From: a phage
Strand: one strand, 5' to 3'
DNA length: 64,000 bases
Assembly (NCBI GenBank): GCA_018027755.1
Contig: GCA_018027755.1_4098.1
Below the pieces are notes generated by a model. It was not told the DNA's origin. It saw only the letters and a program-made list of their open reading frames with translations, and did no database searches. Positions within the stretch are counted from its first letter, which is position 1, and each line of letters starts with the position of its first letter. Below, piece after piece: positions 7,988 to 50,867 of the stretch. Position numbers and translations under genes: made by a program.

Positions 7988-8968
7988 ATGGCTAAAAAAA
8001 TTAATGAAGCACAAGTTAAAATCGATATCGCAGGTTTAGAATCTGATGATTTGGAAACTCTATCACGTATGTTAGCTCTTGCTGGTCAAGCTGAACGTCA
8101 AGACCCAGTAGTTGCCGCTCCAGTACCATCTATGGGGTCTATGACTCCATCTCTTCCACCTATTGCTCCACTAGATCTCGATTCTATTGGTGCTGAAGAA
8201 GAAATTGGTGGAATTGAAACTTCAGTTGAAGACCCACTAGCAGCGGCAGTTGATGATCTTTCCGCTGATGTTGGTGATTTTGGTGCTGACACAGATGAAG
8301 TTAGTATGGATGCTGAATTTTCAGAACCAGGTGTAGAAGGTGAAGAAGATTTTTCTCTTGACCTTAGTGGTCAACCTCAACTAGAATCAGTTGAAGAAGA
8401 CGATGAGGAAGAAGAAGAAATTATTGAAGAAGAATTCGATTTTAGTCGTATGCTATCTCTTGCTGGTATTAACGAAGAAGAAGACGAAGATTTTTCAGTA
8501 GAGGGTAATCCTGCTACCGATAAAGAAATGAAAGATACCCAATTTCTACCAGATCTAAGTATCTCTGAAGATGAAGAACCATCTAACAGTACTGATTATG
8601 GTCCATATGATACAGAAGCTGATGCCGTTCGTGATGGTCAACTAAAGACTAATGGTGTTGAAGGTGACCATTTTGTTGTAATTGCAAAAGGCAATCAATT
8701 TTATTGGAGACGTGTTGTAGATGAAGATCTTGACAATCGTCCAGAACCTGAGTATTATGATAATGAAGGGAACGAAAATCGTGTTCATAAATTTGAACCA
8801 AAATTCCCAGGCACTGCATTAGGAGATAACCCACTAAATGTTAATGAAAGTGAAGAAGATGATTCACCTGAAGGTAACATTGACTTGGAAGATGATTCTG
8901 ATGAAGAAGTAGAAGATATTTTTGAAAGTCTCCAAGAAAAATACAAGAAATTTTTAGGAGACAAATAA
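7988..8968 (+). CDS. highly acidic, low-complexity protein
   Basis: Very D/E-rich; repeated motif SRMLALAGQ / SRMLSLAGI; no fold recognised. Confidence 0.45.
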   Translation: MAKKINEAQVKIDIAGLESDDLETLSRMLALAGQAERQDPVVAAPVPSMGSMTPSLPPIAPLDLDSIGAEEEIGGIETSVEDPLAAAVDDLSADVGDFGADTDEVSMDAEFSEPGVEGEEDFSLDLSGQPQLESVEEDDEEEEEIIEEEFDFSRMLSLAGINEEEDEDFSVEGNPATDKEMKDTQFLPDLSISEDEEPSNSTDYGPYDTEADAVRDGQLKTNGVEGDHFVVIAKGNQFYWRRVVDEDLDNRPEPEYYDNEGNENRVHKFEPKFPGTALGDNPLNVNESEEDDSPEGNIDLEDDSDEEVEDIFESLQEKYKKFLGDK

Positions 8969-8969
8969 T

Positions 8970-9365
8970 ATGCAATATAATTATCGTGAACTAGTTGAAG
9001 CGTTAGACGAAATTACCGGAAGAGATGAAGACGAAAGTTTTTCAGTTGAAGTTGAATCCGATGTTGTAGCAGTTGATGTTCTTAAGGATATTACCAAATG
9101 TCTTATTGATATTGTTGATAAGATTAAATCTGGTGAAGACCAAAAAGAAATTGTAGATAAACTACAAAAAGCCTGTGACATTTTGTCTGACATTCGATAT
9201 AATGATGAAAGTACTGAAGTTGCTGATGAAGAAGTGTTGGAAGCCATTGCAGGTTGTTTTGGAACTGAAGGTATGGGACCAACAATTGACAAAGAAGGCG
9301 TACAACACTATAATGAGCCTGGTGCACCATCATATGCTGCACGTCAAGGTTTTGTTGGAGACTAA
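8970..9365 (+). CDS. small acidic protein
   Basis: 131 aa, strongly acidic; start 2 nt after previous stop. Confidence 0.4.
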   Translation: MQYNYRELVEALDEITGRDEDESFSVEVESDVVAVDVLKDITKCLIDIVDKIKSGEDQKEIVDKLQKACDILSDIRYNDESTEVADEEVLEAIAGCFGTEGMGPTIDKEGVQHYNEPGAPSYAARQGFVGD

Positions 9366-9368
9366 TAT

Positions 9369-9749
9369 ATGTTTCCAGAACCGTCACATAACAGTACTGA
9401 ATATCAAAATAATGTACTTTCCAAAGTTAGGGAAGTACATGAATCAGATTCAGAAATAACAGACCGTATGCTTCTGATGTCAATTTTTGAAAATTTCAGA
9501 ACTGGCGGTGGTTTACGTCTTAGCAAGTTTGGGTATGGAATTTGTAAAGAAAATAATCTTTATGAATTTACAAAAATCCCCTTGCAAAGAGAATTTAAAA
9601 GTTCTATAATGTTTACATCACTTGACAGAATATGTACTTCACCTTATTATGTTGAAGGTCAGTACATATATCTGACAGATGCAATGATAATAACTGAATT
9701 AACATTGTGTTGTGACGATTTTAAACAGTTATTTTCTATTCATATGTAA
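9369..9749 (+). CDS. hypothetical protein
   Basis: ORF following the acidic genes; Cys-containing. Confidence 0.35.
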   Translation: MFPEPSHNSTEYQNNVLSKVREVHESDSEITDRMLLMSIFENFRTGGGLRLSKFGYGICKENNLYEFTKIPLQREFKSSIMFTSLDRICTSPYYVEGQYIYLTDAMIITELTLCCDDFKQLFSIHM

Positions 9750-9773
9750 GAAAAAATGAATTAAAAATAAATG

Positions 9774-9801
9774 TTGACAAGATAGAATGATGTGATACAA
9801 T
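9774..9801 (+). promoter_or_regulatory. sigma70-type promoter P1 (TTGACA-16-TACAAT)
   Basis: TTGACA, 16-nt spacer, TACAAT preceded by TG (extended -10). Confidence 0.55.
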
Positions 9802-9866
9802 AAGCATCAGACATAAAGTTTTCAAGCGACACAAGATGTGAGTTTGAAAAAAAAGAAAAAAAGTGA

Positions 9867-9894
9867 TTGACAAGTTGAAACGATGTGATATAAT
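9867..9894 (+). promoter_or_regulatory. sigma70-type promoter P2 (TTGACA-16-TATAAT)
   Basis: TTGACAAG..GATGTGATATAAT; shares the GATGTGATAyAAT box with P1. Confidence 0.6.
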
Positions 9895-10063: not shown

Positions 10064-11389
10064 ATGACTACTCAAAACGATATCCTGAACGTTAAACTGA
10101 CTCCAAAGAAAGCTAAAGAAGCAATGGCACTAGCTGACATGATTCAAGATAGCCTGATGATTTGGGGTAGCCCAGGTATCGGTAAGTCTGCAATCGCTCG
10201 TCAATACGCTGATGAAAATTACCCACTGCGTAAAGATAACGTAGCTAAAATCGAGTTCATGAAACAACAAATCGAAGCTGACCCTGAAAATGCTGATCAG
10301 CTACGCCGTGAACTGGCTGCATTTGAAGCAAAACTAATCGACCAAGATACTAACTTTATCGATTTCCGTTTGTCTCAAATCGAACCAAGTGACCTTCGCG
10401 GTATTCCAGTACCAGAGAAGCTTTTCCGTAAAACTGACGGTTCTCTTCTGAAAGAATCTGAGCTTGCCGAAGCAAAAGATTATGTAGCTGAAACTGCGGT
10501 AGTATGGGCTGCACCTAAAGTTCTGAAATTGTCCGAAGATTGGAAAGGTGTTATTCTGTTTGACGAAATTAACTCTGCAATGCCTATTGTTCAGGCAGCG
10601 TCTTATCAGCTAATCCTCGACCGTTGTGTTGGTGAGATGAAGCTACCTAAGACTGCACTGATTCTTGCAGCAGGTAACCGTGAAACTGATGGCGGTGTAA
10701 CTTTCTCTCTTGCTACACCACTGCGTGACCGTATGACTCACATTGAGATGATTCCTTATCATCAAGATTGGATTAACGATTATGCGATTGCAAAACGTTT
10801 GAACCCAGCAACTGTTGCGTTCATCAACAACACTGGTTCTAAGTACTTTAACACACTTAGTCCACAAGATCCTTCTCACAGTGGTGGTACTTCTCCACGT
10901 TCATGGGAAGCAGTAGCACGCTACGAAGATCTCAAGAAAACTAAGACAATTGATAAAGAAGTGTTCCGTGCAATGATTGCTGGGCGTGTTGGTGAAGGTG
11001 TTGCAACTGAATACATTGAGTACGTTGAGAACGTTGCTAAACTACCAGATACTATGTCTATTCTGTCTGGTGAAATCAAAGAAATCGACGCAACGCTGGA
11101 TATTTCTGCGAACTACTTTATCACTCTGAACTTGGTTTATAAAATTATCGACCTGTTCAATGAGAAGCAAGAACAACGTCTACCAGTGGAAGAATGGGGT
11201 AAACTGTGTAACAACTTCATCACCTTCCTAGACCATAACTTCTCTGCAACTCAAGCAGAACTGGCAGTACTGGCAATTCGTACCATCACGCTTCATAAGG
11301 TTGCGATTTCCATTAAAGATGTACCAGCGTTTAAAGATTTCATCGCTAAGTACTCTGAACTTGTACGTAAAGCACGCTCTCTTGGCTAA
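10064..11389 (+). CDS. MoxR/CobS-like AAA+ ATPase
   Basis: Walker A GSPGIGKS, Walker B ILFDEIN, sensor AAGNRE, Arg finger region RDR; RBS AAGGA upstream. Confidence 0.8.
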   Translation: MTTQNDILNVKLTPKKAKEAMALADMIQDSLMIWGSPGIGKSAIARQYADENYPLRKDNVAKIEFMKQQIEADPENADQLRRELAAFEAKLIDQDTNFIDFRLSQIEPSDLRGIPVPEKLFRKTDGSLLKESELAEAKDYVAETAVVWAAPKVLKLSEDWKGVILFDEINSAMPIVQAASYQLILDRCVGEMKLPKTALILAAGNRETDGGVTFSLATPLRDRMTHIEMIPYHQDWINDYAIAKRLNPATVAFINNTGSKYFNTLSPQDPSHSGGTSPRSWEAVARYEDLKKTKTIDKEVFRAMIAGRVGEGVATEYIEYVENVAKLPDTMSILSGEIKEIDATLDISANYFITLNLVYKIIDLFNEKQEQRLPVEEWGKLCNNFITFLDHNFSATQAELAVLAIRTITLHKVAISIKDVPAFKDFIAKYSELVRKARSLG

Positions 11390-13905: not shown

Positions 13906-14499
13906 ATGAAAAAGAATGAATTAGATGAAGCAATTAAAGGTTTATCTAATGTATGTTTTAGTGGCGGGGCAGCAGGTGCTGACCGCCTTTTTTCTATCTA
14001 TGCAAAAAATAATGGATTTGAAGTTATTAATTTTTCATTCAAAGGTCATGAGCATAGTGTAGATGAAAGTACTATATTAGAAATACCATCCAATATTCTA
14101 TCTGATATTTCTATATTAAATCAACTAAACATTGCATGTTACTCGTTGCAGCGAAAAGTACCAAAGCCTGGTTCTTATGTTTACAACTTACTTGCAAGGA
14201 ATAGTTATCAGATACTTAATACAGAAAGAATATATTGTATTGCAAATATCACATCACCAACTAAGGTAAGTGGTGGTACTGCATGGGCAGTACAGATGTA
14301 TATGGATTCAGTTGAAAATCCTGAAATTTATTGTTATGATATGAATTCACGTTCAGTATTTTATTTCGATACAGTACTGAAAGAGTTCACACAAACATTC
14401 GTCGTTCCAGCACCACATGGTAACTGGACTGGTATTGGTTCACGCAATGCCACCGAAAAACATATGGAACATTTTATTACATTTTTCAAGGAAGAATAA
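13906..14499 (+). CDS. hypothetical Rossmann-like protein, possibly SLOG/DprA-like
   Basis: N-terminal motif FSGGAAGADRLFS resembles the glycine-rich motif of SLOG-superfamily proteins; stop overlaps the thymidylate synthase start. Confidence 0.3.
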   Translation: MKKNELDEAIKGLSNVCFSGGAAGADRLFSIYAKNNGFEVINFSFKGHEHSVDESTILEIPSNILSDISILNQLNIACYSLQRKVPKPGSYVYNLLARNSYQILNTERIYCIANITSPTKVSGGTAWAVQMYMDSVENPEIYCYDMNSRSVFYFDTVLKEFTQTFVVPAPHGNWTGIGSRNATEKHMEHFITFFKEE

Positions 14500-15428
14500 T
14501 GAAACAACTACAAGAACTATATCAAAAAATTCTAGATGAAGGCGTAGAAAGCGTTGACCGTACTGGTGTTGGAACAATCAAACTTATCGGTCAACAAATG
14601 CGTTTTGACCTTAAAGATGGTTTCCCAGCAGTGACGACAAAACGTCTAGCTTGGAAAGCAATGACTTCAGAATTACTATGGTTTATTGAAGGTTCCCATG
14701 ATGAGCGTCGCCTTTGTGAAATTTTGCATGGAACTCGTGATACAGAAAAGAAAACTATTTGGACAGATAATTACCTAAATCAAGGCGTTGCTCTTGGTTA
14801 TACTGATGGTGAGTTAGGTCCAGTGTATGGTAAGCAATGGCGTGAATGGGAAGATTATAAATTTAGTTCCAGTACTGAAGAAATTCAAGAATTAAAAGAT
14901 AAAGGATACAAAGTTATCGATTATACTGGATCGCATGGTGTTGTTATGAAACGTACAACTGACCAATTACAGGAACTAATCAAAGGTATAAAGTCCGATC
15001 CATATGGTCGTCGCCATATTCTAAGTGCATGGAACGTTGGTGAGCTTGATGATATGACGTTACCACCTTGTCATAGCTTTGTACAATTTTGTGTAGTACA
15101 AGGGAAACTAAGCTGCATTCTACATCAAAGATCCGCTGATCTATTTTTGGGAGTTCCATTTAATATCAGTAGTTATTCACTACTAACTCATATGATTGCA
15201 CAAATTACTGGTTTAGATGTTGGTGAATTTATTTGGAATGGTGGTGATTGTCACATTTATAAAAACCACGTTGAACAAGTAAAAGAACAACTACAGCGAA
15301 AACCTCGTGAATTACCTGAATTGTGGCTTGATCCTACAATTACTAATATTGAAGATTTCACTATGGATTCTTTTAAATTAGTGAATTACAACCCAATGCC
15401 AACAATTAAAGCACCTATGGCTGTATAA
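14499..15428 (+). CDS. td: thymidylate synthase (uninterrupted, no intron)
   Basis: Active-site LPPCHSFVQFCV, QRSADLFLGVPFNISSYSLLTHMIAQ, GGDCHIYKNH (Asn retained, dUMP-type), C-terminal IKAPMAV. Confidence 0.9.
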   Translation: MKQLQELYQKILDEGVESVDRTGVGTIKLIGQQMRFDLKDGFPAVTTKRLAWKAMTSELLWFIEGSHDERRLCEILHGTRDTEKKTIWTDNYLNQGVALGYTDGELGPVYGKQWREWEDYKFSSSTEEIQELKDKGYKVIDYTGSHGVVMKRTTDQLQELIKGIKSDPYGRRHILSAWNVGELDDMTLPPCHSFVQFCVVQGKLSCILHQRSADLFLGVPFNISSYSLLTHMIAQITGLDVGEFIWNGGDCHIYKNHVEQVKEQLQRKPRELPELWLDPTITNIEDFTMDSFKLVNYNPMPTIKAPMAV

Positions 15429-18355: not shown

Positions 18356-21300
18356 TTAAGCAGTACGTTGTGCAATAAACATATCTGTTACTGGACTCAC
18401 CCCGTCATAAATGACTTGGTAGATAGTTACAGAGTTTGCAGTTTTGTTTAGAGTTCCATCAACAACCGCATAAGTACCATCAGTAGTAAAGTTTCTATTA
18501 CCTGTTGCATCTTGTTTCACATAAATGTATACTGAAGATGCTTTACCACCACCGATTAGACCAGTGATTGGTGCTAGAGTGGTATCTTGATCTAGAGTGA
18601 TAAAGTATACGTTGCTAGTACCGTCTGGGGTCCAAGTACCAGTTGGTGCGATAACAGAAGAAGTTACTTGATTAGGAATAACATCATATTTTTTAGTAGT
18701 TACTGTTGTTGTAGTTAGGTCAGCATTAGTAGTTGTCAATTGACCAGTTACAGTTACATCTTTATCAAATACTGCATTTTCTTTGAAAGAAGATGTTGCA
18801 TTGACAGTTAATGTATCAGCAGCAGCGTCACCTAAAACAACACTACCATTTGCAGTCATTAAACCAGTAACAGTTAAAGTACCACCGATTGTTGCTGCTC
18901 CAGTAACAGATGCACTAGCAAGTGTTGCTGCACCAGAAGTAGTAATGGTAGTTACTGAAGTTGCTGCTAGGGTTGCAGTACCTGTTGCAGAAATATCACC
19001 ACCAACAGTTAGGTTACCAGAAGTAATTCCAACGGTTCCAGTAATGTTAGCACCACTTGACATCGTTACTGCACCACCAAATGAACCAGTAGTAGTTACT
19101 TCAAGGGTGTTCCCTTTTAGTAGACCAGTTGCAGTAATACTTGTACCTGCGGTAATACTAGTACCAGCAGCAACACTGTTGGTTGCAGTTAATGATTTAA
19201 CAGCCACGTCAGAGTTTGCTTGGTTTAGTGTTGCGTTTAGTAGACCAGTTACTGTAAAGTTACCGTTGTTAACTACGTTACCATTGATTGTTAAGTTGTT
19301 GTTTTGTGAACCAACATCACCAATAGTTGCTGATTTGGAAATCAACTCTGCACCAGAAGTAATGTTACCCGCTGCACTAATAGTGTCAGCCGCAACAACT
19401 GCATAAGGTTCAATTGTTTGACCACTAACGTCAATATCAGCGTTGATACCACCATCTACACGCAAGGAGCCTGCAATGTAAGTATTAGGGAAAATCTGAA
19501 CTGTCTCTGGTTGATCACCAATTTTAGTACCGATAATAACATCAGAACCAGTTTTAACTGCACCAGAGGTTGTTAGTGAACCTAAAGTTGTAGCACCAGT
19601 TACACCTAATGTTCCACCAATTGTTGCGTTATTGGTAACTGCTAATGCAGCACCTTCACCATTAAGAGCGATTGATGGAGCAGATACTGCACCAGTTACG
19701 CCTAATGTGCCACCAATTGTTGCGTTGCCATCTGAATGTAGAGTTGTAGCTACAGAAAGACTGTTAGCAACTACATCAGTACTAGCTAAATCCAATGCAC
19801 CTGGGGTTAATGTACCAGTAATGTTAACATTATTACCAAAGGTTGCTGCACCAGTCACATCTAGTGTAGTACTAAATGTACCAGAGGTTGCAGAGATTGC
19901 ACCTGAATCTAGTGATCCAACAGTTGCTTTCCCAGTTACACCTAAAGTTCCACCAACAGTTCCATTTGTGGTTACATCCAATGTACCAGTACTTAGTTCT
20001 TGTGCGGTTACCTTACCGGATGCAGTAACAGTTGAAGTGGAAACGCCACCAGTTAGAGTACTAGCACCAGTAACACTTAATGTGGTTGCAGCAGTTACGC
20101 TATTTACGCTAAGATCAGCACCGGATAAGTCCAAACCACCTTCAGGAACAAATACACCCTTAACAGTTAGTTTTTGTACTGTACTATCACCTGTTACATC
20201 CAAGGTAGAAGCAGTTAAACCACCATTCATACTTGCTGCACCAGTAACACCTAGTGTAGTGGTTACAGTAGCACTATTAAGTGTTGAACTACCAGAAATA
20301 TTAGCACTAGGAGCAGTAATAGTTCCAGAATCAACTTGTATACCACCAGCAACAACCTGAATTCCACCAGCATTAACTGTTAGTTTACCAGCAGTATTCA
20401 ATGTATTTGAAACTGTTGTTGCACCAGTTAAAGTTGTAGTACCAGTTACACCTAAGTTACCAGAAATAGATGGACTACCTGTAATATTACCAGTAGTTAG
20501 TATCAAATCAGTACCTACGGTAGTGGAGCCAGTACTTTCTAGTGTTACACCGACGATGTTTGCAGAACTTAGGTTAATAGTACCATCAACAGTTAAGTTA
20601 CCTTGAACGGTTGCATCACCTAGAGAAGTTAATGTCTTCACAGACACATCAGTTGTGCTAAGATCAATAACACCCGCAGTTAGTGTTCCAGATACTGCTA
20701 AATTACCAGTAATCGCGGTATTTTTAGTAATGGATACATTTTCTGCCGCTGAAGTAATAGAACCAACAGTAAGTACACCACCAACAGTTGCGTTATTAGT
20801 TACATTTAGAGCAGTTCCAACACCAGATAGTGTTGCTGACCCACCAGTAATTGCACCTGAGATTGAAGCTGTTGCTGCTGAAACATCACCAGAAACTACT
20901 GCATTTGTTGCATTTAGAGCAGACACTGTAACTTCAGTACTTTGAACTTTAGGTAGAACGTTGATACCTTCTGCACTACTAACTGTAATAATACCAGTAC
21001 TTGTTAGAGATTTAACAGATACATCAGCACCACTTAAATCAACTGTACCAGAAACAACAAGATCTCCACCAATATTTGCTCCAGCGGTAGTAGTAATGGA
21101 TTTTGCACTTACATCAGTTGTGCTCAAATCAATTGCACCTGGTGTTACTGTACCAGAAACTGTTAGGTCACCAGTAATAGATGTATTATTGGAAATAGAT
21201 ACACCATCAACGTTACTAATTGTTGGGGTTTCTACAGAAACTGCTTTAACTTTACCTGAAGAAGTTACGTCAGCTACGGTAGATGCACCAGTAACATTCA

Positions 21301-31061: not shown

Positions 31062-32405
31062 TTATTTGTCAGTGAAAGTTATTTTCCAATATCCCTGACG
31101 ATACACAGGCATGATACTTTTATGCCATTTAAATTTGTCATTATATCTATAATAACCATTGTCTTCTTTATTATAAATGTAATTTCGTACAGTAGATGGA
31201 TCAATTAATTGTGCACCATCATTTGTAATTTTAAACAAATAATTTGATGGGATTTCGGTTTCTTTATAAATGATGTTATGTATACTGTTATTTACATAAT
31301 ATTGTTCAGGTAATGCACTTGAAAGTACTGAATCTTTCTGCACAAACCCATGTATAGTGTAATCAACAGTATAATTGGTATTATCAAGCTGTACTATAAT
31401 TTTGTTGGCATCTTCATTTTCACCATACGACGCTATATGACCTTTTAGTGGGTTGTCTTCTTCAATAGATTGTTGAAATTTAATCCCTACTTTTTTGTCA
31501 TCAAAATTTGGTTCTAGATATTTAAGATATTTTTCCCATGAATATATTCCACCGTTGGGAGAAACCGCAGATAGCGATTGGCTAACCAAGGTAAGTTGGT
31601 ATGTATCAGGTAAATTATACTTGGAATTAGTAATTTCTTCAACTTTAATGCATAAATTCTTGGGTGTAAAAACATCTGTTATTATATCTGAATAATTTCC
31701 CATTTCAAAATCAAATTCGTCACGAGCACCTTTAATATTTGTAGTAATCTGTTGGATTAATTTTGGTTTTTCAACAATAGCTGGTAAAGAAAACCATATT
31801 GTCGTTTCAAATGTTAAAACCATTATATCCAAATCTGGGTCAGTTCCTTGTGGAAAACCACGAGTAGAAAACTGACAATCTATTAGTTCAACATCACTAA
31901 GCGATGTCCAATCTAACGGGTTATCAGATAATTGAAGTTGTATACTAGGTGCAAACAAAGTTGAGATTTGTTCGAATAATTCCATTTTAGTTTGAGTTTG
32001 AGTTACCCAAATATTCAAATCAAACGTAAAAGTCCAAGGTACTGGGTTATGTCTTACAATTTTGTATTGTGTGTCAAGATCTTTTGTGTACTCATTAATA
32101 GCAGGGGACTTGTTAGACCCCATTACTATAGTTTCGTTGGCATTAGAACGAATATTTTTACGATCCAACTTTAGTTGATTAACACTTATGGTCATTATAG
32201 GTGCTGATGGGAGAACATTTTCACTATTCCCATTTATAATTGCTGCTGCCATTCTTGAAATATCGGCATAGCGACATGGAACCTTTTTGTATTTTGGGTT
32301 TCCATTAGCATCAATACCATTTTGTACTTGAAATTCACCAAAAACTCTGATAAGATGTTTCAGTACTCTGCGAAATTGACCGTCATAATAATAATCTATT
32401 TTCAT
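31062..32405 (-). CDS. hypothetical protein
   Basis: 447 aa; start overlaps upstream gene stop by 4 nt. Confidence 0.4.
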   Translation of the reverse strand: MKIDYYYDGQFRRVLKHLIRVFGEFQVQNGIDANGNPKYKKVPCRYADISRMAAAIINGNSENVLPSAPIMTISVNQLKLDRKNIRSNANETIVMGSNKSPAINEYTKDLDTQYKIVRHNPVPWTFTFDLNIWVTQTQTKMELFEQISTLFAPSIQLQLSDNPLDWTSLSDVELIDCQFSTRGFPQGTDPDLDIMVLTFETTIWFSLPAIVEKPKLIQQITTNIKGARDEFDFEMGNYSDIITDVFTPKNLCIKVEEITNSKYNLPDTYQLTLVSQSLSAVSPNGGIYSWEKYLKYLEPNFDDKKVGIKFQQSIEEDNPLKGHIASYGENEDANKIIVQLDNTNYTVDYTIHGFVQKDSVLSSALPEQYYVNNSIHNIIYKETEIPSNYLFKITNDGAQLIDPSTVRNYIYNKEDNGYYRYNDKFKWHKSIMPVYRQGYWKITFTDK

Positions 32406-33907
32406 TCTGTGTCCTTATGTATGCGATAAACAGTATTAGGTTTAACTGCGTCATGTAATGGAACTTTGTTATCACTATTTACAAACTGTGTAAGTGCTAA
32501 GTCTGCACCTTCCCACGGTTTTCTTCCACCATAATCAAAAATAACCCATGAATTCTTAGTTGCATTGAATTCCCATAACGTAACTGGAGTATAATCGGTG
32601 CGATAGAAATAGTCACCATCTACTGCATCAGTTGGGAACATATTTCCTTCAGGGACTGTACCTCGTGCTGGTGGAATTTTAGGACGATAATCTTGTTGCG
32701 AATCAATATTACCATATACACAATTGGACGTGAATGGTTCATTGACATAAGTTACCTTTGGTTCCCCCCACTTGTCATCATTATACTGATAAATGTGTGG
32801 TTCTTTATAAAAAATACAAAAATCTTCCACATCTTCTGGTGGAACATCACTGGTAGTATATTCTACATCACAATTTAACCATTTTTTAGCACTTTTATCA
32901 TATTGATACAACGTATAACCTGTCACATCTGCGTCATTTTCTTTAAAGAAGAAGTCACCATCCATTGGTTTTCTGGGAAAGATGGTTCCACGCTTGACTT
33001 CCACAGAAATCCATGTATCATTAACAAACTCTTTGAGTACTGGGTATGTTTTTTTCAAAAAATACATTCCATCGGCAGGTTCTTCTGGAAAATCATAACC
33101 GTTAAGCATATATTTTGATAAATCTACTGTATCAGGTCGATCATCATACAAATGTTCATTTGTATAATGAATATAGGGTACTTCATCATCAGCTTGCATG
33201 ATGATACGGTTCATGATATCCATTTCATTGCCATAGTTACTGTTTTCCGACGAACCATCATCGGTATTTCCATTACCATTATTAGGGTCATCTGGATTAT
33301 CAGGATAATTATTGTTACCGAGTAAATCGGAGTACTCAGGTGAGTCGGTTAGCGGTTTAACTCTAAGTTTATAAATGTGATGTTGCCACGTAACCGAGTA
33401 TCCCTCAGATGTACGAAATGCATCTTGGACGACATAGAAGCGGTTTAGACCTGTATCTTTACCCAATACATCAAAATCACGTAAATTTGGTAGTTCTATC
33501 ACATCCCCTGGCATGATTTTTCTACCTAAACGCTGCATCATTGTATTATAATGGATTGTGATGTCCATAGTGTTGAAATTAAAGAACAATCCTGGGATTT
33601 TCAAGTCTGGAGTTGCTTCTTGAACTTGATAGACACAACTAAGTGTGATAGCTTCAAGGTTGTAGTTTCTGTTTGGTGTGTCACCAAAAATTAAATCGCC
33701 AATACTTGACACAACTGATCCTGAAGATGTATAATCACCTCCATAGGATAAGTCAGTGTTGTCAGCAACTTGTTTTGGACCGACATATGCATAAAGCCAC
33801 ATGTCAACTCCACCAATGTTGTATTGTTCAGCAATGGCAGAATCAATGAACTTGTAATCATTGGTTCTCCCTTTTTTCCACATTCTATATGTCATGTTTG
33901 TCTCCAA
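32402..33907 (-). CDS. hypothetical protein with internal DGxYF repeats
   Basis: Repeats PADGMYFLKKTY, PMDGDFFFKEND, AVDGDYFYRTDY; GGAG RBS. Confidence 0.4.
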   Translation of the reverse strand: METNMTYRMWKKGRTNDYKFIDSAIAEQYNIGGVDMWLYAYVGPKQVADNTDLSYGGDYTSSGSVVSSIGDLIFGDTPNRNYNLEAITLSCVYQVQEATPDLKIPGLFFNFNTMDITIHYNTMMQRLGRKIMPGDVIELPNLRDFDVLGKDTGLNRFYVVQDAFRTSEGYSVTWQHHIYKLRVKPLTDSPEYSDLLGNNNYPDNPDDPNNGNGNTDDGSSENSNYGNEMDIMNRIIMQADDEVPYIHYTNEHLYDDRPDTVDLSKYMLNGYDFPEEPADGMYFLKKTYPVLKEFVNDTWISVEVKRGTIFPRKPMDGDFFFKENDADVTGYTLYQYDKSAKKWLNCDVEYTTSDVPPEDVEDFCIFYKEPHIYQYNDDKWGEPKVTYVNEPFTSNCVYGNIDSQQDYRPKIPPARGTVPEGNMFPTDAVDGDYFYRTDYTPVTLWEFNATKNSWVIFDYGGRKPWEGADLALTQFVNSDNKVPLHDAVKPNTVYRIHKDTE

Positions 33908-33934: not shown

Positions 33935-33965
33935 TTGTAGACAAACCGTAAGAATGTGATATAAT
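33935..33965 (+). promoter_or_regulatory. sigma70-type promoter for Clp-like gene
   Basis: TAGACA-16-TGATATAAT (extended -10), same GAATGTGATATAAT box as the promoters near 9790 and 9880. Confidence 0.5.
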
Positions 33966-34005
33966 GTTTATTAATTAGAGTGACGTGAATCACATAGGAG
34001 AATAC

Positions 34006-36294
34006 ATGAATCTTACTCAATTGTTCAAAAAAAGCGACGAACTGGCAACATCTCTAGGTCATACATTCTTGACTATTGACCACGTAAGTGCCACAGTACT
34101 GACTATTGATAGCATCAAGAACGTATTTGAAGATATGAACATTGATGCAGACAAACTGCACAACCGCCTGATGAACTATCTTAAAAATACAACAGTTCCA
34201 CATGCACCAAAAAGTGTTAAAGATGAAGACGCGAATCGCACTTCACTTCTAGTGAATCGCGTTGTACATGAGCTTTCTAAAAAATCAGTTATTGAACAAC
34301 TAAAAAGTGATGATTTTTCGATTGATGCATATTTTGTTCTATTCGAATGTCTGTCTTTCCCTAACACAGCACTAGAAGCTGCGTTGAAAGAAGAAGGTGT
34401 TAGCTGTACTGAAGCTGCACGTGCATTGCAAAAACACGTTGAGTCACTTGATAAGGGTATCAACTTACAAAGTATTAATGACGAACCGATTGGAGATAAA
34501 AAAGTGGCCCAACAGCAGCAATCATCTAAACAAAAAGGTTTGGAAGACTATACAACGAATCTAACTGCTCTTGCAAAAGAAGGCAAACTAGATCCTATGA
34601 TTGGTCGCCAGAAAGAATTGTCTGCATTGATTGAGACTCTTGCTCGCAAAACCAAAAAGAATGCTATTCTTACTGGTGAAGCTGGTGTAGGTAAAACACA
34701 AATCATCGACGGTCTTGCACAAGCTATTGCTGACGGCAACGTACCTGAACACCTGAAAGACGTTGAAATTCTTTCACTAAATGTTGGTGCATTGACTGCT
34801 GGTACTAAGTATCGTGGTGAGTTTGAAGAACGCATCGACAATTTGCTAAAAGAACTAAAGAAACGTGAAAATACTATTGTTTTCATTGATGAAATTCATA
34901 TTATGGTTGGGGCTGGTTCCGCTAGTAATGGTTCTATGGACATGAGCAATATGCTTAAGCCAGCACTTTCACGTGGTGAGATTCGTGTAATTGGTGCAAC
35001 AACATATGATGAATATCGTAAAAATATCGAGAAAGATAGTGCATTAACTCGTCGTTTTATGAAAATTGATGTAGTTGAGCCGTCAATTGATGAAACTCGT
35101 GCAATTGTTAATGGTTTGAAACCAACTTATGAAAAATTCCATAATGTTGAGTTCACAACTGATGCAATGGATGCTGTAATTTCTCTCAGTGATAAATTCC
35201 TGAAGAATAAGCACTTCCCAGATAAAGCAATTGATCTAATGGACGCTGCCGCTGCAAAAGTTCGTTCACGTGACAACAATAGTAAGCTTATTACTGCCAA
35301 TTTGATTCAAGAAGTTGTTGCTGGTATTGCCAATTTGGATATCAACGTGGTTGCATGTACTGAAAGTGATCGTATGCGTAATCTACCAGATGCACTACGC
35401 TCACGTGTATACGGTCAAGAGGAAGCTATTCAAAAATTAGTTGATAACGTGATGGTAGCTCGTGCAGGACTGCGTGACAAATCTAGTGTTCAGGGTGCAT
35501 TTATGTTTGTTGGACCATCTGGTACTGGTAAAACAGAAATTACCAAAGCATTAGCAGATGCAACTGGTGCGGAACTGATTCGCTTTGATATGTCAGAATT
35601 TTCTCAAGAACATACTGTTTCTAAACTAATTGGTTCACCTCCAGGTTATGTTGGTCATGATTCTGGTAACGGTTTACTGTTGGATAAAATTGAGCAGTTC
35701 CCTAATGCAGTACTGTTACTTGATGAAATTGAAAAAGCAGATCGTAAAGTACTACTAACCTTCCTACAGGTTTTGGATGAAGGTCGCCTGACTGGTTCAC
35801 AAGGTAAAACTGTATATTTTAATAACGTAACTGTTATTATGACTACAAACCTTGGTGCGGCAGATTCAACGAAGCGTAGCATTGGTATGAGCGGTAGTGA
35901 TACTGCACAAGACAAGGCAATTAAAGCATTCTTGCCACCAGAGTTTATTAACCGTATTGATAGTATCGTTACGTTTAAAGACCTAAGCAGTGAAGCTATT
36001 GACAGCATCATTGATAAGTTCATGGGCAGTTTGAATGAACAAGTCAAAGACCGCAATGTTAAAGTTACATTGACAAAAGCTGCACGTGAATGGCTTGCGA
36101 AAAATGGGGTAAAAGTTGGCATGGGTGCACGTCCAATGAAACGTACCATTGAACAAAACATTCGTGTACCACTAGCTAAAGAAATGTTGTGTGGTTCACT
36201 TGTGAATGGTGGTAACATTACATTTGATGTTATTGATGGTAAAATCGGTATTAAACCGAAACGTTCCAAAGCTGTAGATAAAGCACTGGCATAA
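34006..36294 (+). CDS. ClpA/ClpB-family two-ring AAA+ unfoldase
   Basis: D1 Walker [10 protein letters not shown] and Walker B VFIDEIH; D2 Walker [10 protein letters not shown] and Walker [10 protein letters not shown]; Clp N-domain; IGM tripeptide at the position of the ClpA IGL loop; AGGAG RBS before ATG 34006 (track start 33985 is GTG). Confidence 0.85.
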
Positions 36295-36330
36295 AAAAGA
36301 AAAGGAGAGCAATATGCTCTCCTTTTTTAT
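36295..36330 (+). terminator. bidirectional intrinsic terminator
   Basis: AAGGAGAGC-AATAT-GCTCTCCTT flanked by A-run and T-run. Confidence 0.75.
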
Positions 36331-50859: not shown

Positions 50860-50867
50860 TATTTATA
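50860..50867 (-). promoter_or_regulatory. T4-type late promoter box TATAAATA
   Basis: Exact TATAAATA on minus strand about 17 nt upstream of lysozyme ATG, followed by GAGGA RBS. Confidence 0.5.

Follow-up and report, generated by a model that had tools for sequence, protein, structure and literature searches.

We describe here a clpA-like gene found in a 64,000-nucleotide stretch of phage DNA (NCBI GenBank assembly GCA_018027755.1, contig GCA_018027755.1_4098.1), referred to below as the window, and the proteolytic partners that its product may have. The window is 98.6-99.4% identical to the Asteriusvirus jumbo coliphages 121Q, PBECO4, slurp01, phAPEC6 and G17 and, by this measure, is Rak2-like (Asteriusvirus) jumbo coliphage DNA. 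The gene and its flanking signals are listed in Table 1, together with relevant genes of 121Q. Both neighbours lie on the minus strand, and the clpA-like gene would therefore be transcribed alone. The original prediction, made from the DNA letters, had described a monocistronic gene with its own sigma70-like promoter and terminator among structural genes, and this description agrees with what we find. An alternative GTG start at 33985 (+) opens the same open reading frame (ORF) upstream of the ATG; the ATG is the start annotated in the 121Q and phAPEC6 counterparts.

Table 1. Features of the clpA-like locus in the window, and genes of phage 121Q discussed in the text (aa, amino acids; nt, nucleotides)
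Feature	Position	Strand	Description
Distal sigma70-type promoter P1	33706..33735	+	TTGACA-18-TATAAT, 12/12; ~300 nt 5' of the clpA-like start
Proximal sigma70-type promoter P2	33938..33965	+	TAGACA-16-TATAAT with extended -10 TG; within the 110-bp intergenic region
Shine-Dalgarno AGGAG	33996..34000	+	5 nt 5' of ATG 34006; read directly
clpA-like coding sequence	34006..36294	+	762 aa; ATG start, TAA stop at 36292-36294
Divergent Clp N-domain, aa 1-150	34006..34455	+	Fastest-evolving folded part of the protein
D1 core	34675..34899	+	Walker A GEAGVGKT (aa 224-231), pore loop GTKYRGEFE (266-274), Walker B FIDEIH (293-298)
D2 core	35512..35739	+	Walker A GPSGTGKT (aa 503-510), pore loop SPPGYVGHD (544-552), Walker B LLLDEIEKA (570-578)
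IGM tripeptide, aa 626-628	35881..35889	+	Position of the IGL ClpP-docking motif of E. coli ClpA
Hairpin terminator	36300..36326	.	12-bp stem, 3-nt loop, A-run and T-run flanks; RNAfold -19.1 kcal/mol
Flanking virion structural gene (121Q gp580 counterpart, ~500 aa)	32402..33895	-	Divergent from the clpA-like gene; same neighbour in RaK2 and GAP32
Flanking virion gene (121Q gp582 / phAPEC6 gp245 counterpart), 3333 aa	36330..46331	-	Convergent with the clpA-like gene
121Q gp464 (ClpP)	14364-15059 of 121Q segment L006		CLP_protease / clpP profile matches
121Q gp48 (ClpS-like)	34461-35006 of 121Q segment L002		PF02617 match
121Q gp49 (KTSC-domain, 'DnaJ-like')	35078-35623 of 121Q segment L002		Adjoins gp48
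121Q gp473, very divergent ClpP-fold protein	18420-19028 of 121Q segment L006		Signal-peptide-like N-terminus
121Q gp475, HslV-like peptidase	19356-19952 of 121Q segment L006

Sequence comparison identifies the product as a ClpA-type double-ring AAA+ unfoldase devoid of the middle domain of ClpB and ClpC. The TIGR02639 ClpA profile aligns to the protein without a break (residues 3-740 on profile positions 5-732 of 734, 755 bits), while the ClpB, ClpV, ClpK and ClpG models match in two pieces only. Likewise, the best phmmer hit in the PDB is E. coli ClpA, again in one stretch (E=6.5e-181), and ClpC, ClpB and Hsp104 are split. A continuous ClpA match alongside interrupted ClpB and ClpC matches implies that no middle domain is present and that the protein is of ClpA type and not of ClpB type; ClpB, ClpC, ClpV, ClpK and ClpG were ruled out on these grounds. 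ClpB/Hsp104 and ClpC have the class-I Hsp100 two-ring core in common with the window protein. However, they require a coiled-coil middle domain separating D1 from D2, a trait that also sets ClpE apart from ClpA, and the window protein is about 100 aa shorter; it also differs from ClpB/Hsp104 in having a loop at the ClpP-docking position. A ClpB-type disaggregase lacking a ClpP interface, which the original prediction had named as the competing class, is thus not what the alignments return. Scores nevertheless fall below the NCBIfam equivalog cut-offs for ClpA (755.2 versus 993.15 bits for TIGR02639, 656.3 versus 1350 bits for NF008263), and the protein should therefore be called ClpA-like, not an equivalog of bacterial ClpA.

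The two rings are complete, as initially proposed. Pfam recognizes AAA (PF00004) in D1, AAA_lid_9, AAA_2 (PF07724, 168 bits) in D2, and ClpB_D2-small. The protein has the Walker A and B motifs of both rings, the pore loops (KYR and GYVG), the Arg finger and sensor-2, and hardly any variation is seen in these elements across 119 homologues; judging from the alignment, the ATPase and pore-loop motifs are under strong purifying selection. An AlphaFold2 (AF2) model built from a 30-sequence alignment has a mean predicted local distance difference test score (pLDDT) of 79.5. In Foldseek comparisons, it superimposes on the ClpA chains of ClpAP cryo-electron microscopy structures with template modelling (TM) scores of 0.82-0.87 and 47-48% identity over D1-D2. 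The resemblance to E. coli ClpA (ClpAP; PDB 1KSF, 6W1Z, 7UIV) extends to length (762 versus 758 aa), to the N-domain/D1/D2 layout without a middle domain and to the Walker, pore-loop, Arg-finger and sensor motifs. The N-domain, in contrast, is barely recognizable by sequence (E~0.01 to ClpA-N). Its first repeat (aa 11-59) matches Clp_N at 24.8 bits against a cutoff of 20.7 and the second is undetectable by sequence; the AF2 model places eight helices in residues 1-148, the number expected for the two four-helix repeats of a Clp N-domain. Its mean column entropy is 1.77 bits, compared to 0.67-0.78 for the AAA+ large subdomains. Profile match and model together indicate that this N-domain is very divergent but real.

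The gene is not restricted to close relatives of the window. Counterparts of its product are 121Q gp581, from which it differs at 5 of 762 residues (99.3% identity), phAPEC6 gp246c, RaK2 ORF069 and GAP32_229. These Rak2-like ClpA-like genes have the same flanks, promoters and terminator, and the window copy is the same gene in another isolate. The protein matches its own PHROG, phrog_4871, over the full length (1036 bits). Among 5.8 billion proteins searched, 114 clusters or more have identities of 53-93%, most of them from contigs of about 350 kb, before the score falls from 845 bits in the phage clade to 652 bits in the next, presumably cellular, relatives; this large gap also sets the phage-encoded protein apart from cellular ClpA. 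The RaK2 (76% identity) and GAP32 (62%) copies are flanked by the same pair of virion genes, again on the strand opposite to theirs, and have an equivalent hairpin downstream. Several near-identical proteins are also encoded on contigs of 350-380 kb that carry the label Escherichia coli or Salmonella enterica in NCBI; these contigs appear to be complete jumbo-phage genomes obtained in assemblies of bacterial isolates.

Lying on the opposite strand within a structural block, this relative of a cellular gene has the look of an insertion, and one may ask whether it is a recently captured host gene or a decaying passenger with no role in infection. This is effectively refuted by the present data. 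The protein shares no more than 39-48% identity with E. coli ClpA, no catalytic motif varies, and megablast found no match to similar DNA in 5,426 complete RefSeq E. coli genomes, which rules out recent host capture or a prophage. Together with this result, the deep phage-only clade and the synteny conserved in at least three genera exclude a recent capture. From the phylogenetic and positional evidence, the gene is old and vertically inherited in Rak2-like jumbo phages, its position kept in three genera.

Nor is the gene itself new. It belongs to a known phage protein family mentioned in jumbo-phage reviews: it has been annotated as ClpA-like in 121Q since 2014, and in RaK2, GAP32 and 121Q for more than a decade, and the literature already describes the protein as conserved in Rak2-like phages. 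ClpA and ClpX figure among the AAA+ chaperones that Iyer et al. 2021 catalogue for jumbo phages, with translocase or assembly roles suggested for them (PMC7824862). Our literature search for functional or transcriptomic data on phage Clp genes returned annotation-level remarks only. One proteomic result bears on the protein: phAPEC6 gp246c is missing from the 62 virion proteins identified by mass spectrometry (MS), in which the neighbouring gp245 and gp248 are present (PMC7247149). Its absence from this virion proteome indicates that the ClpA-like protein is not structural.

The original prediction placed an IGM tripeptide at the position of the IGL docking loop of E. coli ClpA, and the alignment confirms this placement exactly: IGM falls column for column under IGL ('rksIGLihqd'). 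In the AF2 model, the tripeptide lies in a low-pLDDT loop of D2 (residues 625-630), as expected for a flexible docking loop, though the phage loop is two residues shorter than that of E. coli ClpA. The canonical form of the ClpP-docking motif is (L/I/V)-G-(F/L) (PMC8745299); the Met at the third position of the window tripeptide falls outside it.

From this loop, the original prediction suggested pairing with the host ClpP. In full, phage ClpA would dock on the abundant host ClpP14 via its IGM loops, compete with host ClpA and ClpX, and redirect proteolysis to substrates chosen by the phage. The loop is indeed in the exact docking position, and its tripeptide is of the hydrophobic-Gly-hydrophobic type, one conservative change away from IGL; the 47-48% identity of D2 to E. 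coli ClpA points the same way, and sigma70-type promoters imply early expression, at a time when host ClpP is present. Docking on host ClpP would also be compatible with docking on a phage ClpP. A survey of 69 non-redundant members of the phage clade speaks against this hypothesis: the tripeptide differs a great deal from phage to phage, even though their Enterobacterales hosts are closely related. Variants include IGM, LGL, LGM, IGA, IGG, VGF, IGV, MNM, MGM, MSM, IGF and more; 12 of the 69 are canonical, 39 are hydrophobic-G-hydrophobic, and 30 (for example, IGG, IGA, MNM, MSM) are neither. The tripeptide has an entropy of 1.79 bits versus 0.67 for D2, and no other part of that ring is as poorly conserved across the phage clade. 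Host enterobacterial ClpPs, for their part, are nearly identical and highly conserved. A loop docking on such a conserved partner should not vary as the phage tripeptide does; host conservation should have fixed it.

A further argument comes from the phages' own genes. The tblastn searches of the window with E. coli ClpP and ClpS gave noise only, in agreement with the initial observation that neither gene is visible there; the same queries found gp464 in 121Q. The absence is a limit of the window, which covers 64 kb of its own genome, and not of the phage. We read the 121Q genome in full for Clp partners. There, gp464 is a full-length ClpP (Pfam CLP_protease PF00574, 141 bits), 35.6% identical to E. 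coli ClpP and matching PDB ClpPs at E~1e-36. The catalytic triad S97/H122/D171 is intact in all seven phage ClpPs examined, as is the N-terminal axial-loop motif P-x-V-x-E...GER-x-YD. By these sequence criteria, gp464 is a genuine ClpP with an intact catalytic triad. PHROGs files it under 'head maturation protease', contrary to the profile scores: TIGR00493 clpP scores 151.6 bits versus 51.3 for the ClpP-related head-maturation model. 121Q also encodes a separate T4 gp21-type prohead protease, gp601, so that gp464 is not needed for head maturation. Given a threefold higher score for ClpP models and the separate gp601, we consider it unlikely that gp464 is merely a prohead protease.

A candidate adaptor is also present. 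121Q gp48 contains a ClpS domain (PF02617, 24.7 bits versus a cutoff of 23) within 181 aa, with N- and C-terminal extensions of about 65 and 40 aa. This type of ClpS-like protein is confined to Rak2-like phages (72 records), with no homologue outside the clade at E<=1e-5. When gp48 is aligned to E. coli ClpS, the positions that we take to bind N-degrons, presumably NDD and H66 in E. coli numbering, read DDP and N, and its N-degron specificity may thus differ from that of E. coli ClpS. Across the phage collection, the ClpA-like, gp464-type ClpP and gp48-type ClpS-like genes are found in the same set of Rak2-like phages, infecting Escherichia, Klebsiella, Salmonella, Erwinia, Yersinia, Serratia, Cronobacter, Pectobacterium and Xanthomonas. 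Among the enterobacterial members, identities to the 121Q/window copies go down to about 60% for ClpA, 66% for ClpP and 38% for the ClpS-like protein; in Xanthomonas phage XaC1, the corresponding values are 53%, 45.5% and 35%. Because Rak2-like phages carry their own ClpP and a ClpS-like adaptor, phage partners are more likely than a hijack of host ClpP, for which a catalytically intact phage ClpP would be superfluous.

Other proteostasis genes were noted in 121Q. The ClpP-fold protein gp473 is unlikely to be the ClpP that partners ClpA, with a partial CLP_protease match (16.7 bits) below the cutoff and a signal-peptide-like N-terminus. The HslV-like peptidase gp475 is unaccompanied by any HslU annotated in the 121Q genome tables. 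With gp473, gp475 and the GroES-like and DnaJ-like genes, 121Q has a sizeable proteostasis set.

If phage ClpA docks on phage ClpP, both sides of the interface should be considered. We mapped onto the phage ClpPs the pocket residues listed for E. coli ClpP (bioRxiv 10.1101/2023.03.01.530711). R22, Y62 and, mostly, I90 and M92 are kept; others are replaced, in ways that vary between phages (Y60>T/V/S, F82>S/Y/N/C/M, L114>G/T, V44>K/S, F49>W/Y). Among six Rak2-like ClpPs, 2 of 17 pocket positions are invariant, versus 33% of all positions. The ClpPs of 121Q, RaK2, GAP32, 7t3, pEa_SNUABM_19 and XaC1 also have in common a C-terminal extension of about 20 residues (...NExGxxxVKRRGGVEEWV), absent from E. 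coli and PA5oct ClpP, which emerges at the apical, ATPase-docking face. In E. coli, the ClpP C-terminus is near enough to the ClpA IGL loop for crosslinking (PMC7707817). A variable loop facing a variable pocket fits better with a phage-private or relaxed interface than with docking on the conserved host ClpP. Of the claim of pairing with host ClpP, the ClpA class and the position of the IGM loop therefore stand, and the pairing itself is weakened by the phage ClpP and ClpS-like genes, their clade-wide co-occurrence with ClpA, the variable tripeptide and the remodelled pocket; we now regard a hijack of host ClpP as quite improbable.

The variability seen in both loop and pocket could reflect either a co-evolved, phage-private interface or a joint relaxation of constraint; the six ClpA/ClpP pairs that we assembled are too few to separate the two or to test covariation statistically. 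Relaxation would be expected if the protein were a ClpP-independent unfoldase or chaperone that remodels or disassembles its clients without degradation, the tripeptide loop being a relic. Clients might then be very large virion proteins or host complexes. E. coli ClpA itself remodels RepA without degradation. The weak constraint on the tripeptide, non-docking-like in the 30 members mentioned above, and the equally unconstrained phage ClpP pocket favor this idea, as do the place of the gene between two virion genes, one of 3333 aa, kept across genera, and the roles suggested by Iyer et al. The loop, however, is not drifting freely: its first position is hydrophobic in 66 of 69 members and Gly is kept in 56. 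In addition, ClpP co-occurs with ClpA throughout the phage clade, the sigma70 promoters and opposite strand imply no co-transcription with the late virion genes, and there is no ClpB-type middle domain for DnaK-coupled disaggregation. We hold this explanation to be rather unlikely, though it deserves more weight than a hijack of host ClpP.

We favor the hypothesis that the clpA-like protein is the unfoldase subunit in a Clp proteolysis set of the phage, docking mainly on the phage's own ClpP, and give it about an even chance of being correct. Host sigma70 RNA polymerase would transcribe the gene early in infection; we infer early transcription from promoters that match the host sigma70 consensus and keep their positions in three genera, and from a strand opposite to that of the virion genes. 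Phage ClpA hexamers would then dock via their IGM loops mainly on phage ClpP, whose pocket and C-terminal extension may have diverged together with the tripeptide to form a phage-private interface. The N-domain could be where the ClpS-like adaptor binds, the two evolving equally fast. The complex would degrade selected host or phage proteins, for takeover, counter-defence, amino-acid recycling or quality control, and would not take part in virion building.

We may also hypothesize a more elaborate version: a private, orthogonal Clp protease in which the tripeptide has co-evolved with the remodelled pocket and the C-terminal extension, with no cross-reaction with host ClpP, ClpA or ClpX, and in which the divergent ClpS-like adaptor, through its altered N-degron pocket, aims the protease early at host defence or takeover targets. 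Stated in such detail, this scenario is tentative and more doubtful than the phage Clp proteolysis set as a whole.

Several observations weigh against a phage-encoded Clp proteolysis set. The 30 tripeptides of non-docking type would be expected to abolish canonical docking, and if the interface has been relaxed on both sides, there would be no docking at all. The ClpP and ClpS-like genes were observed in near-identical relatives, outside the window, and lie about 84 kb and 85 kb from clpA, hence with no operon link. The timing of expression is read from promoter type only. A ClpP homologue was reported in CBB virion preparations, with 1 peptide (PMC5259590), and an annotation note for PA5oct also mentions a ClpP homologue in virion preparations; both hint at a morphogenetic role for ClpP. 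Finally, we found no experiment on the clpA-like protein in the literature searched.

A comparable gene set exists outside the Rak2-like phages. Agrobacterium phage Atu_ph07 encodes ClpA (gp292), ClpP (gp676) and ClpS (gp708), plus ClpX and ClpB (PMC6102473). Like the Rak2-like phages, Atu_ph07 and Pseudomonas phage PA5oct combine a phage ClpA-type ATPase with a ClpP, and Atu_ph07 also has a ClpS. These proteins are much more distant (38-42% identity to the window protein for ClpA, 33-40% to gp464 for ClpP), and the additional ClpX and ClpB of Atu_ph07 distinguish it from the Rak2-like set.

The signals flanking the gene are conserved in position. P2 has positional counterparts in RaK2 (-77, 12/12 plus TG) and GAP32 (-65, 10/12 plus TG), and P1 has counterparts at matching relative positions (-303, 11/12 in RaK2; -292, 12/12 plus TG in GAP32). 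P1 lies inside the 5' coding part of the upstream minus-strand virion gene, and transcripts from it would run antisense to the start of that gene. Downstream, the hairpin, with its A-run and T-run flanks, can act as terminator for the clpA-like gene as well as for the giant virion gene that converges on it. The 3333-aa ORF with which this terminator is held in common is given no function in the annotations consulted; its phAPEC6 counterpart, gp245 (382 kDa), was detected in virions by MS with 17 peptides (PMC7247149). An Rfam search of the window returned no structured RNA.

Sigma70-like sites with at least 11 of 12 matches number 11 in the window, against a mean of 4.3 in shuffled sequences. 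Six of these 11 strongest matches are clustered in 1.2 kb (8730-9894, plus strand), upstream of ORF 10064..11389, and two of the six fall in the gap directly 5' of the gene for a 441-aa AAA-type ATPase (121Q gp563 counterpart). The phAPEC6 counterpart of this ATPase, gp265c (49.5 kDa), is listed among virion proteins (PMC7247149). Of the T4 late-promoter motif TATAAATA, only two copies are present in these 64 kb of mostly structural genes, at 50867 and 56906 (minus strand); this phage probably uses late promoters of another type than T4.

What our analysis adds to a gene already known is its context: Rak2-like phages come with a ClpP of their own and a ClpS-like protein, and nowhere in the D2 ring of this clade is conservation lower than at the docking motif. 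This raises a testable question, namely whether these phages carry a complete, self-contained ATP-dependent protease made up of ClpA, ClpP and a ClpS-like adaptor, and what its targets are. If the loop has instead been relaxed, we would be observing a ClpA on its way to becoming an unfoldase independent of ClpP. Should the interface truly be phage-private, the two proteins would represent a natural orthogonal AAA+ protease pair, which would bear on takeover and anti-defence biology and might possibly provide a tool for targeted degradation.

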